Source of the DNA: Iphione sp. A-MEVVRFRX5
Lineage: Eukaryota
DNA length: 64,000 bases
Direction: 5' to 3'
NCBI GenBank assembly: GCA_976226885.1
Contig: OZ320313.1
Span: 51,026,001-51,090,000 of the forward strand
Of this stretch, positions 38,593 through 41,882 are shown one piece after another (position 1 is the stretch's first letter; every line of letters begins with the position of its first letter). Made by a program: the position numbers and the translations under genes. The notes below the pieces were generated by a model. It was given only the letters and a program-made list of their open reading frames with translations, was not told the DNA's origin and did not search any database.

Positions 38593-38676
38593 GACCGCAT
38601 CTCGGGCTATGTCCCTTGCAAGCGGATCTGGAAACGAACACAGAGTTTATGATCCAGGTCAGTACTGTCCCTCACA

Positions 38677-39123
38677 TCAATGTTTGTACCATCCCCCCTG
38701 CGGACAAAAAGGTAGTGACTGTCTATAGTTCATCAAGATGGTCAACACCTCCACAGGGGGGGTAATGCGTTCATGACGATGTTCCCCCAACAAGTCTCGT
38801 ACGATGAACTGGAACTTCGGGGCCGTGTACCAGCGGGACAGAGCGTCGGCCAGCTCCATGTCCCGCCCTGGCACATGACGAAACCGAAGCTCAAACCCAA
38901 ATTCAGCCTGTTGTCGGCAAAGCCTTCTAGCACATGCCAAGAGTACCTTGTCCCTGCCTCTCCCCGTTGTGTAGACCTCTACGGCGGGGAGGTTGTCGCA
39001 GCACACCTCAACAAGATGTCCCCTATCGTCCTCGCCTGTCATCGCGCACACTGCAAGCATAACATTAGCAGATTCAACCTGTGAAATGTGAAACCCGCTC
39101 ATGCTACTTGGGAGTTTCTCTGC
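38677..39123 (-). pseudogene. C-terminal RNase H part of pol, separated from the RT by an in-frame TAA
   Basis: Same frame as ORF 39124-40611: GACDEHSY*AEKLPSSMSGFHISQVES...CCDNLPAV...HVPGRDMELADALSR (DIRS RNase H motifs). Confidence 0.9.
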
Positions 39124-40626
39124 TTAGTAGCTATGCTCGTCGCACGCCCCAAGGCCACTCATACACGCATCAGCACATATGGTCTTACTCACGTGGTTGT
39201 CAGGTATTATTTCAACACCGTTCCACTGGGGAAGAAAACATAAGAACCACCTGATGTCCTTTCTTGCTTCCGCACTCAACTTCAGGTGGTGCCCTGTGGA
39301 TGCTCGAAGGAGGGCCAGGAGCCTACTGACAAAGAGACGCCCAGGCCTGACACATCGGGAGATATACAGGAGCCTACCGAGGATACTTTGTAGCTGCTTG
39401 CGGGTTATGGACCGACAGGATGAGACAGTCTCCAATTCGTGGCATATGGCCTGCACCTTCTGCAATGGGATAGAAATGAGCATATTGTAGGCATCAATCT
39501 GCACCCCAAGCCATACAACAGATGGAGCCGGGTCCTGGGTCTTGTGCACGGCCTCAGGGAGGCCAAGGGACCGAAATAGGGCCCGCGTTACCTGAAAGGT
39601 CCTCCATGCTTCTTCGGGTCCTCTGGCGGCCACTATCAAGTCATCCAAGTACATCGCTGCGTGGACTTCGTGCCTAGCCAGCATCCTTACAATCGCGTCG
39701 GCAACCCGCTGCATATGATTGGAAGAGCAGCGGGCGCCGAACGGGATGCTGGTATCCATATAATACTTGTCCTGCCAACGGAATAGTAACAATGGCCAAT
39801 CACTTGGACAAGTAGGGAAATTTTTGTAGGCGCGTGCTATATCCATAGTGAATAAATATACATCATCATTGAGCGACCTAATCCGGGCCAAGAGAGACTC
39901 CAATGTAGGGAGCGAATGGTCCCTGGTAACACCCAGGACCATATTCTTAGGGATGTAGGCGTTGATGGAACTTGCCTGCGGAAACGACATATCGGTGATA
40001 ATACGTCGCTCCTGACTGTCACTCTTCGGCCTTGACATCAGGGGAGAAGAATGACACCATTGATCAAACGGAGGGACTATGAAAGGACCACACAGTGCGC
40101 CTAACCTCATTTCATTCTCAATATATTGATTGACAGAGTCAGGATACTGTACCGCCGACGGGTGATTTGGAACATGGCATGTATCAGATGTTGGTCCGAG
40201 GTAACCTATAGGGAAACCGTATGTTATTAAGTCGATGAGTTGTGCATCACAGTCATCTTGTGCAAGATACCAAGCCCAGGCCTGCAAGTTGAGGGCTGAT
40301 GGAACCTGGTAGCGTGCGGCCAGCAAGTTAGGGTAGCCGGTGTCCCGTACTACGCTATATATTTTTTCTTTCTCAGAGTCCAGGACATTACTCACAGGTA
40401 AAGGCCAATGTGTTCGTCGATAATGGGCCATGGAATGCACATCACAATACGTGGCAATGTCATCATTTTGATCATCAGCACAACATTTAGCAATAGCTTG
40501 GAAATCAATGGTATGTGAGTCAAAGTTCTTATCAACATTGCAGGAGGGCTTGCTTACCTCCTTGCTGACTGGTGGCCCCTCCTCCTCAGTGGTCTTGAGC
40601 CCGCCAGTCAATTCTGGTCGTTTTTT
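39124..40626 (-). CDS. Reverse transcriptase (plus start of RNase H) of the Ngaro element; no ATG at the ORF start, probably reached by -1 frameshift
   Basis: RRIITDMS, DIARAYKNFP, PFGARCS, YLDDLIV, WLGVQID and LQSILGRL motifs, then ICADAC. The ORF-track start at 40611 is TTG. Confidence 0.92.
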   Translation of the reverse strand, partial: KKRPELTGGLKTTEEEGPPVSKEVSKPSCNVDKNFDSHTIDFQAIAKCCADDQNDDIATYCDVHSMAHYRRTHWPLPVSNVLDSEKEKIYSVVRDTGYPNLLAARYQVPSALNLQAWAWYLAQDDCDAQLIDLITYGFPIGYLGPTSDTCHVPNHPSAVQYPDSVNQYIENEMRLGALCGPFIVPPFDQWCHSSPLMSRPKSDSQERRIITDMSFPQASSINAYIPKNMVLGVTRDHSLPTLESLLARIRSLNDDVYLFTMDIARAYKNFPTCPSDWPLLLFRWQDKYYMDTSIPFGARCSSNHMQRVADAIVRMLARHEVHAAMYLDDLIVAARGPEEAWRTFQVTRALFRSLGLPEAVHKTQDPAPSVVWLGVQIDAYNMLISIPLQKVQAICHELETVSSCRSITRKQLQSILGRLLYISRCVRPGRLFVSRLLALLRASTGHHLKLSAEARKDIRWFLCFLPQWNGVEIIPDNHVSKTICADACMSGLGACDEHSY

Positions 40627-41882
40627 GCTGCTGCCGGCTGAGGGTTCCGCTGTTGAGGGGCTTGCGCTGGCTTGGGGGTAGGCTGTGAGGTGCTTGTGGT
40701 CTGACGCTGTGTTGCAGTGTATCTTGCCTTTTTAGTACATGATGACAAAGTATCTGGATGTTTTGCATTATTCGCCGCCAGGCAAAAACTACAGACATGA
40801 AGCATACGGACCTTACCTTCCATGTGAAAGTCACGTTTTATCGCACAGTTGGCCAAACTAAACGCTGGGCAAACCACCTCCATACCGATCTGTGCGTTGT
40901 CCATTGGGGCCATACTGAGGCGTAACCGCTCATATCGGATGACGTCTTGGTCCCTCCATGAGATTTCACATCGTTCAATCCGGTCAAAGACTGTGTTGGT
41001 CCACAGGAGAACATTCTCCCATGGGCGGTGCCTTGCATCCTGTGCTACGTGCATAAGATGGTCAAACATGAATTCCCTATCTTGAAGGGGGATAGAATTA
41101 CGGTCTCTTAGCATTGCTAGATAGGCTGGGACATACTCCTGATAACTAATCTTCGTCCTATATTCATTTCGTTCTTTGGCAGACATATTGCCCTCGATGT
41201 ACATATGCGGGCGAGGGATGAGATGGCGAATGCGAAAATCGATATTACCTCTGACATTCTCGGCCTGTGCAACCCACGGCGCTGCCGCATCGACGTACTG
41301 GTCAATATACTGCTGGACAGCCGGTCCTTGTCGGAGCTGGCCCGGTGTTGGATACGGTGTCTGCAGAACTTGACCAACCGGTTGTGGGGGAGGTACTGTT
41401 AGTGCCGCCTGGGTATACACGCCTGTTTGCTGTGGAACAAGACGTGAGTTTATGACAGAAGTGTAGTCAGACGTTACACTGCGTAGGGGCTGTTTTGTCA
41501 CCGACTGACCGTAACCAGAGACCGAAGGTTGCACTGTACTGGTCAAACCGGTCTGAAGTGGTTGCGAGCTGGTACCAGCCGGCCCTGCACTGACAAGTGC
41601 GGGGACACGTCCGACCGGTTGAGAAGCCGCGGCAGGGAAGGTAACTGCGGCCCCAGGTTGTGCTGCATTGGTCTGAAATAAAGCGGATAAATCGGTTATT
41701 TGTGTCTTGAGTCCAGATAACTCGGACATAGCCCGCTCCAGTTTATCTAGACGGTCCGTCACTTTCGGCTTCGGGTTGTTCTTGTTTCTTGCTGGCGTGG
41801 CCCCGGTTTCCACGATATCGTTTTCGCCATTGTCGTTTGATTCGTCCGAGGTGCCCTGGTCAGAATTCTTCTTTGGTGGCAT
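40608..41882 (-). CDS. Gag-like ORF1 (424 aa) with a C-terminal Cys/His zinc-finger cluster
   Basis: ATG at 41882 (MPPKKNSD), a coiled coil LDKLERAMSELSGLK, and CPAFSLANC...H...HVCSFCL...H...C. Confidence 0.9.
   Translation of the reverse strand: MPPKKNSDQGTSDESNDNGENDIVETGATPARNKNNPKPKVTDRLDKLERAMSELSGLKTQITDLSALFQTNAAQPGAAVTFPAAASQPVGRVPALVSAGPAGTSSQPLQTGLTSTVQPSVSGYGQSVTKQPLRSVTSDYTSVINSRLVPQQTGVYTQAALTVPPPQPVGQVLQTPYPTPGQLRQGPAVQQYIDQYVDAAAPWVAQAENVRGNIDFRIRHLIPRPHMYIEGNMSAKERNEYRTKISYQEYVPAYLAMLRDRNSIPLQDREFMFDHLMHVAQDARHRPWENVLLWTNTVFDRIERCEISWRDQDVIRYERLRLSMAPMDNAQIGMEVVCPAFSLANCAIKRDFHMEGKVRMLHVCSFCLAANNAKHPDTLSSCTKKARYTATQRQTTSTSQPTPKPAQAPQQRNPQPAAAKNDQN

Follow-up and report, generated by a model that had tools for sequence, protein, structure and literature searches.

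How does a retrotransposon translate its last gene when that gene keeps no conserved start codon of its own? The question is raised by an Ngaro-type tyrosine-recombinase retrotransposon on the minus strand of contig OZ320313.1 of Iphione sp. A-MEVVRFRX5 (assembly GCA_976226885.1), within the stretch of 64,000 nucleotides (nt) at positions 51,026,001 to 51,090,000 that we call the window, in which gag and pol are followed by an open reading frame (ORF) for the tyrosine recombinase (YR). Comparison with its relatives reveals a phase-1 splice donor within gag (41249/41248) and a phase-1 splice acceptor at the start of YR (38628/38627), both conserved across the family, and with high confidence we propose that YR is made from a spliced RNA as a Gag/YR fusion, 533 amino acids (aa) long in this copy. 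A prediction made from the window alone (the original prediction) had already suggested that a gag-to-YR splice removes the RT (reverse transcriptase) and RNase H (RH) region and accounts for translation of the 3'-most ORF; the conserved in-phase sites support that idea and its acceptor, with the donor placed 432 nt further upstream.

A conserved donor and acceptor would link gag to YR

The features on which the argument turns are as follows.

42042-37254, minus strand: the Ngaro-type tyrosine-recombinase retrotransposon, recognized by its split direct repeats and its gag, pol and YR ORFs
40608..41882, minus strand: gag ORF, 424 aa, homologous to the amphioxus Gag model P0170 (hhalign 94.9%)
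41249..41882, minus strand: predicted coding exon 1, 634 nt, equal to 211 codons and 1 base
41243..41251, minus strand: conserved phase-1 splice donor in the gag Arg-Gly-Asn codons, exon end 41249, from sister and synonymous-control comparison
38628..41248, minus strand: predicted intron, 2621 nt, spanning the Gag core, the zinc finger and the whole of pol
38628..38645, minus strand: polypyrimidine tract and conserved phase-1 acceptor, intron end 38628
37660..38627, minus strand: predicted exon 2, the tyrosine recombinase (PF00589)
40811..40819, minus strand: donor of the original prediction, exon end 40817, strong in the window copy and unconserved

Besides the window copy the genome holds 124 YR matches of 36-68% identity. 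Our main set comprised 130 fetched stretches and the window, 131 in all, of which 126 were anchored at the YR start, four having no YR match and one no motif. Donors were counted in the 114 of these 126 elements that could be placed by a gag anchor using downstream residues only; a strict motif search had anchored just 67 of the 126, and the counts given here come from a profile built without the donor codons. The held-out loci, 47 in number, were chosen by exon-1 protein similarity. Synonymous sites in this family are near saturation: at conserved four-fold columns the third base most often used has a median frequency of 0.33-0.37, and nucleotides that are fixed at such sites are therefore informative.

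The donor is fixed to a degree that its protein context does not share. All 114 gag-anchored elements carry GT there in phase 1 and 113 carry AG/GTAA. The Gly codon that holds the donor is spelled GGT in every one of the 114; at 21 other conserved Gly columns GGT makes up 13-43%, and across gag 30%. The codon before it has A as its third base in 113 of the 114, whether it stands for Arg, Lys, Gln, Thr or Ser; gag-wide the share with A is 30% among Arg codons and 52% among Lys codons. Flanking codons reach at most 76% fixation, that maximum falling at a Trp column, and the donor is the sole column above 0.72 among 114 conserved four-fold columns. A scan by column and phase returned a single gag donor column at 100%, the best in pol being 41%. 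The pattern persists after thinning to elements less than 75% identical (GT in 94/94) and in the held-out loci (AG/GTAA in 39 of the 42 anchored).

The acceptor is similarly conserved. YAG stands there in phase 1 in 123 of the 126 elements, more than chance would give, as well as in 104 of 106 representatives less than 75% identical and 31 of 35 anchored held-out loci. T occupies position -5 in 104/126, and pyrimidines make up 76% of positions -14 to -5, compared with 47% in controls. The codon before the junction varies in meaning (S/P/T/A/L/V/I) and has a final A in every one of the 126; the codon after it (D/G/A/V/E) starts with G in 123. Conservation of the YR protein begins at the acceptor in the sister alignment. 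Two other acceptors were rejected: the top-scoring one, at 38698, is in phase 0, inside pol and not a conserved column, and the AG at the YR 'LHS' motif most likely reflects constraint on a Ser AGY codon.

Of the features of a U2-type intron, the GT donor, the pyrimidine tract and the YAG acceptor are conserved, with matching phases. In the 111 elements with both sites the median intron is 2527 nt, and both exons are open in 74 of them, with predicted products of 487-603 aa. A search of the genome with a degenerate junction pattern for a spliced retrocopy gave one match, a chance one in a proline-rich repeat, and exon 1 abuts YR in none of the 126 elements or the held-out loci.

Relatives outside the genome

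A YR profile search of 1.84 billion representatives, with follow-ups, yielded 192 YR-bearing proteins, made up of the best 150 matches, their cluster members and relatives of P0096. An N-terminal extension of at least 90 aa that is not pol occurs in 17 of the 192, and all 17 are RefSeq models from Branchiostoma, in eight groups. P0096 (XP_078682739.1) and its clustered loci have residues 1-173 in common with P0170 (XP_019623496.1), a 390-aa Gag model, and P0096 enters YR at profile position 1, the residue aligned with the window acceptor. Just past the shared part the Gag model reads Lys-Gly and the fusion Lys-Ala, as would be expected of a phase-1 donor lying in a Gly codon. The Gag profile found no significant match in the N-termini of the amphioxus fusions (best E 0.73); we identify this N-terminus as Gag because it is common to P0096 and P0170 and because the core of P0170 is homologous to the window Gag (E 4e-8). 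The proteins annotated as 'uncharacterized' under XP_078682739.1, XP_078616156.1, XP_035665974.1 and XP_019639177.1 all have an N-terminal segment joined to YR at this same position, with Gag identity shown for the P0096 group, and a spliced Gag-N/YR product would explain this set of gene models. They differ in being automatic models, not described as retrotransposon products, with a YR distant from that of the window family. Two amphioxus models, P0128 and P0149, carry an N-terminal C-x2-C-x-H...C knuckle-like motif that is absent from the Gag N-terminus of the window family.

Further afield, a phase-1 YAG lies within seven codons of the YR start in all three distant metagenome loci that cover it, ranking 1/77, 30/199 and 1/114. 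The gag donor region was not found in metagenome loci L161-L165, of which L164 and L165 are also without the YR start. Word-indexed protein searches added two distant YRs and nothing for the Gag alignment, and the viral contigs searched held no relatives.

A number of observations weigh against splicing as the source of YR. By our splice-site scores, which use approximate weight tables, the donor of the window copy scores 6.9 and ranks 7th of 281 GT sites, a weak value by such a matrix, and the conserved donor is without the +5 G. No branch point at a fixed position was found in 125 elements; the exact TACTGAC/TACTAAC heptamer to which the original prediction pointed occurs in two of the 125, and what stands of that proposal is a roughly 2-3-fold enrichment of looser branch-like motifs (YTRAY in 48/125 against a control mean of 16). 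Three elements depart from the acceptor, L031 and L102 with CAA and L116 with a displaced anchor, and 12 of the 126 are absent from the donor count for want of a gag anchor. The amphioxus support consists of predicted gene models known as proteins only, just two of the eight groups are comparable with another model of the same gag, and other database models (P0012, P0035, P0051, P0072, P0105, P0108 and P0135) join pol to YR. Finally, the closest other copies of the window element are only 68-70% identical in DNA, making it an element with no close sister, and an in-frame stop at 39126-39124 (minus strand), in the RNase H region of pol, leaves this copy unable to make full-length Pol; given both, the window copy may itself be silent.

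Probable frameshifting at the end of gag

Three features at the gag/pol boundary bear on how the remaining products are made.

40620..40626, minus strand: A AAA AAC, the slippery site predicted for a -1 frameshift where gag ends
38677..40731, minus strand: pol, with RT (PF00078, YLDD) and then an RNase H-like region
40552..40560, minus strand: donor-like site just past the gag stop (40558/40557), a possible second, loosely placed donor and only a lead

Of the 83 elements whose gag and pol overlap, 82 have pol in the -1 frame and 78 have the exact heptamer, nearly always flanked by a 5' C and a 3' GA, with variable sequence 3' of it. In 49 of 79 elements no Met precedes the conserved start of pol. 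Gag-Pol is thus likely to be produced by a predicted -1 frameshift at A_AAA_AAC. Of 78 elements, 53 have a strong donor-like site 30-130 nt past the slippery heptamer, nearly always beyond the gag stop, compared with 1-38 in 21 other 100-nt windows; the cluster is of mixed phases (42/36) and may serve to make a Gag-only spliced RNA. One window within pol also has strong donor-like sites in 38/78, and the cluster past the gag stop is for us only a lead.

Alternative routes to YR

One alternative, a very improbable one in our judgement, accepts the sites as real but gives them other partners (a second acceptor, a donor past the gag stop or one in the 5' untranslated region (UTR)), or takes AG/GTAA to be fixed as an RNA signal or as the stop of an overlapping frame. 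It draws on the cluster just described, on weaker acceptor-like columns in pol (66%) and YR (81%), and on the scope of the alignment scan, which took in only gag, pol and YR. Against it, the donor (100%) and the acceptor (94%) are alone in standing out among the column-phases scanned (1137 in gag, 1956 in pol and 990 in YR), their phases match, and the amphioxus models have the same pairing, whereas the second cluster mixes its phases. The overlapping frame that ends at the TAA of the donor was rejected as a cause of its conservation, being short, variable (median 18 codons) and unconserved.

We give equally little credence to 40817 as the functional donor. Every part of that proposal is present in the window copy: AAG/GTAAGG with its exon end at 40817, TTTCCAG closing the intron at 38628, an interval of 2189 nt and phase 1 at either site; the arithmetic of a 677-aa fusion is correct as well. 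By approximate scoring this donor is the best of the 281 GT sites in the window copy, and the acceptor is 9th of 263 AG sites. Conservation divides the pair, however, for the acceptor is kept across the family while at 40817 only 23 of 119 elements have GT and 6 of 119 a donor-like score, with GA in the closest sister, L031. The site falls on Gly-Lys codons within the Gag zinc finger, which splicing there would halve, and the conserved in-phase donor upstream gives an intron of 2621 nt and a product of 533 aa instead. In the window copy alone, 40817 may still act as a cryptic donor.

Programmed frameshifting or readthrough from pol into YR, which we consider less probable again, is the published proposal: Poulter and Butler 2015, as quoted in an excerpt of PMC13003380, held that the YR of Ngaro is probably translated by frameshift. 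It can call on 58 of 92 elements in which the pol ORF overlaps the open YR frame, and on a shared frame in 34. The pol-to-YR frame offset, however, is spread 34/23/35 over the 92 elements, which no single shift fits; pol and YR do not overlap in 34 of them; a stop lies within two codons upstream of YR in 10 of 125; and the fixed YAG and AG/GT would be left unexplained. With the pol/YR offset random and the gag/pol offset fixed at -1, frameshifting is likely for pol and not for YR. Just as far from credible is that YR is translated from an ATG of its own, by way of an internal promoter or by reinitiation, for although an upstream Met lies in the open frame in 46 of 125 elements (at codon -7 in 23) and a Met at codon +23 in 51, no Met precedes the RAPGT motif in 59 of 125, codon +23 falls beyond the invariant L14, A20 and G22, and the ATG at 38592 is unique to the window copy (1 of 126 elements).

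A proposed expression plan

Splicing from gag to YR, read together with the slippery site, suggests a complete expression plan for an Ngaro family. Unspliced RNA would act as the genome and also be translated into Gag and, by way of the predicted -1 frameshift, into Gag-Pol, whereas the spliced RNA would encode a protein of 533 aa comprising the first 211 residues of Gag and the entire YR, without the Gag core and zinc finger. The missing +5 G of the donor would suit partial splicing. The N-terminal part of Gag, with its long helix, linker and helices 180-209, would supply the start codon of YR and, being common to Gag and the fusion, may carry YR into the Gag particle. This gives an exact predicted junction for a translation route that had hitherto only been guessed as a frameshift, and would redefine the recombinase protein that is relevant to biochemistry.

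Whether the route extends further is a separate matter. That splicing of Gag-N onto YR is the ancestral and general Ngaro route, with the Gag piece loading YR into the particle and perhaps steering target choice, is an idea we entertain tentatively, with slightly more doubt than belief. If it were true of Ngaro at large, the annotated YR ORFs would be missing their N-termini, and across the superfamily the frameshift model would be wrong. The fusion in the window family would itself provide a possible route for Gag sequence to affect the choice of integration site; in an Ngaro of Cafeteria, according to an excerpt of PMC8547959, deletion of ORF1 coincides with altered target preference.

The element and its surroundings

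The ends of the element are marked by repeats.

41917..42042, minus strand: split direct repeat A1, the 5' end of the element, with a TATA-like box inside; 126 nt, 98% identity to A2
37529..37638, minus strand: repeat B1, 110 nt, 100% identity to B2
37407..37532, minus strand: repeat A2, paired with A1
37254..37363, minus strand: repeat B2, the element's 3' end, paired with B1

By structure the element is an Ngaro. The window copy has the repeat order A1 ... B1-A2-B2 with the internal repeats 3' of YR, and gag, RT/RH and YR follow in Ngaro order on one strand; across the family the A repeat is present in 98 of 114 elements and the B1-A2-B2 order in 87 of 114. No methyltransferase domain was found after RNase H, RVT_1 being the sole Pfam match, present in 14 of the 66 stop-free pol ORFs scanned. 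Because Pfam missed RNase H as well, this call relies mostly on length, pol being about 620-700 aa in the sister elements and ending just ahead of the acceptor. We rejected a PAT-like (Pat1) identity in view of the missing methyltransferase, the split repeats and the Gag zinc finger being nonetheless common to both, and a DIRS1-like one in view of the direct repeats, with no inverted pair at the element among the longest 25 of 70. The YR catalytic residues R151, K186, H268-x-x-R271, W294 and Y302 are invariant or near-invariant in the sister alignment.

Gag consists of an N-terminal region with a predicted long helix (41-72), a low-complexity linker, conserved helices at 180-209, a helical core and a Cys/His zinc-finger-like motif. 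Its AlphaFold model has a mean predicted local distance difference test (pLDDT) score of 66 and a predicted template modelling (pTM) score of 0.42, and puts the predicted junction in a hinge of low confidence (residues 210-213) that joins the N-terminal part to the confidently modelled core. Fold searches gave no Foldseek match at E<=0.001, the best VIA Z of 5.0 being obtained with the whole model, and the Atlas returned unnamed clusters only.

At least about 170 elements of the clade are present in this genome (G000, L031-L160, L167-L213), mostly single-copy, far apart and many with open frames. In the first 150 nt of YR they have a median DNA identity of 53%, and 119 of 125 are distinct at 95%, a picture of many low-copy families side by side. 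Elsewhere in the window, a GC-rich block at about 52000-58100 contains low-complexity plus-strand ORFs and a minus-strand DDE_Tnp_4 match (57642-58091, E 1e-14) and is probably a Harbinger/PIF-like DNA transposon. A diverged interspersed repeat family with an internal periodicity of about 41 nt flanks the Ngaro element on both sides (35526-36256 and 47320-47923).

Comparison with known systems

Retroviruses reach their 3'-most ORF, env, by a splice that removes the enzymes encoded ahead of it, from a donor located upstream of gag, and their env has an ATG of its own. The window family would differ from this in retaining 211 codons of Gag and in having a YR without its own start. Plant Ty1/Copia elements offer a second likeness, for in excerpts of PMC5580714 conserved partial splicing (the short GAG splice) sets the ratios of retrotransposon proteins; there, splicing with early termination yields Gag alone, whereas that of the window family would yield the integrating enzyme.

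Among Ngaro elements themselves, those described in excerpts of PMC4157794 and PMC8547959 share with ours the layout A1-[gag, RT/RH, YR]-B1-A2-B2, with repeats 3' of YR, no methyltransferase found and the same YR catalytic residues. They part over YR expression, for which the excerpt of PMC13003380 conveys a frameshift from pol, whereas the window family has unrelated pol and YR frames and a conserved predicted splice. Ngaro elements of Xenopus carry an SGNH ORF (excerpt of PMC9210276), which the window element does not. Our literature searches found no description of a Gag-YR splice, though mention is possible in Goodwin and Poulter 2004, Poulter and Goodwin 2005, Poulter and Butler 2015, Repbase or supplements.

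A further parallel is the SD' RNA of murine leukemia virus (MLV), in which, according to excerpts of PMC10496198, splicing from a donor within gag skips most of pol and yields P50, a packaged fusion of Gag-N with integrase. Unlike MLV, the window family has yielded no SDARE-like spliced retrocopy in our searches. The two also differ in function: P50, an accessory protein, carries just the final 116 aa of a DDE integrase, and the working MLV integrase comes from Gag-Pol (same source), whereas in the window family the predicted splice would be the only route to the whole recombinase.

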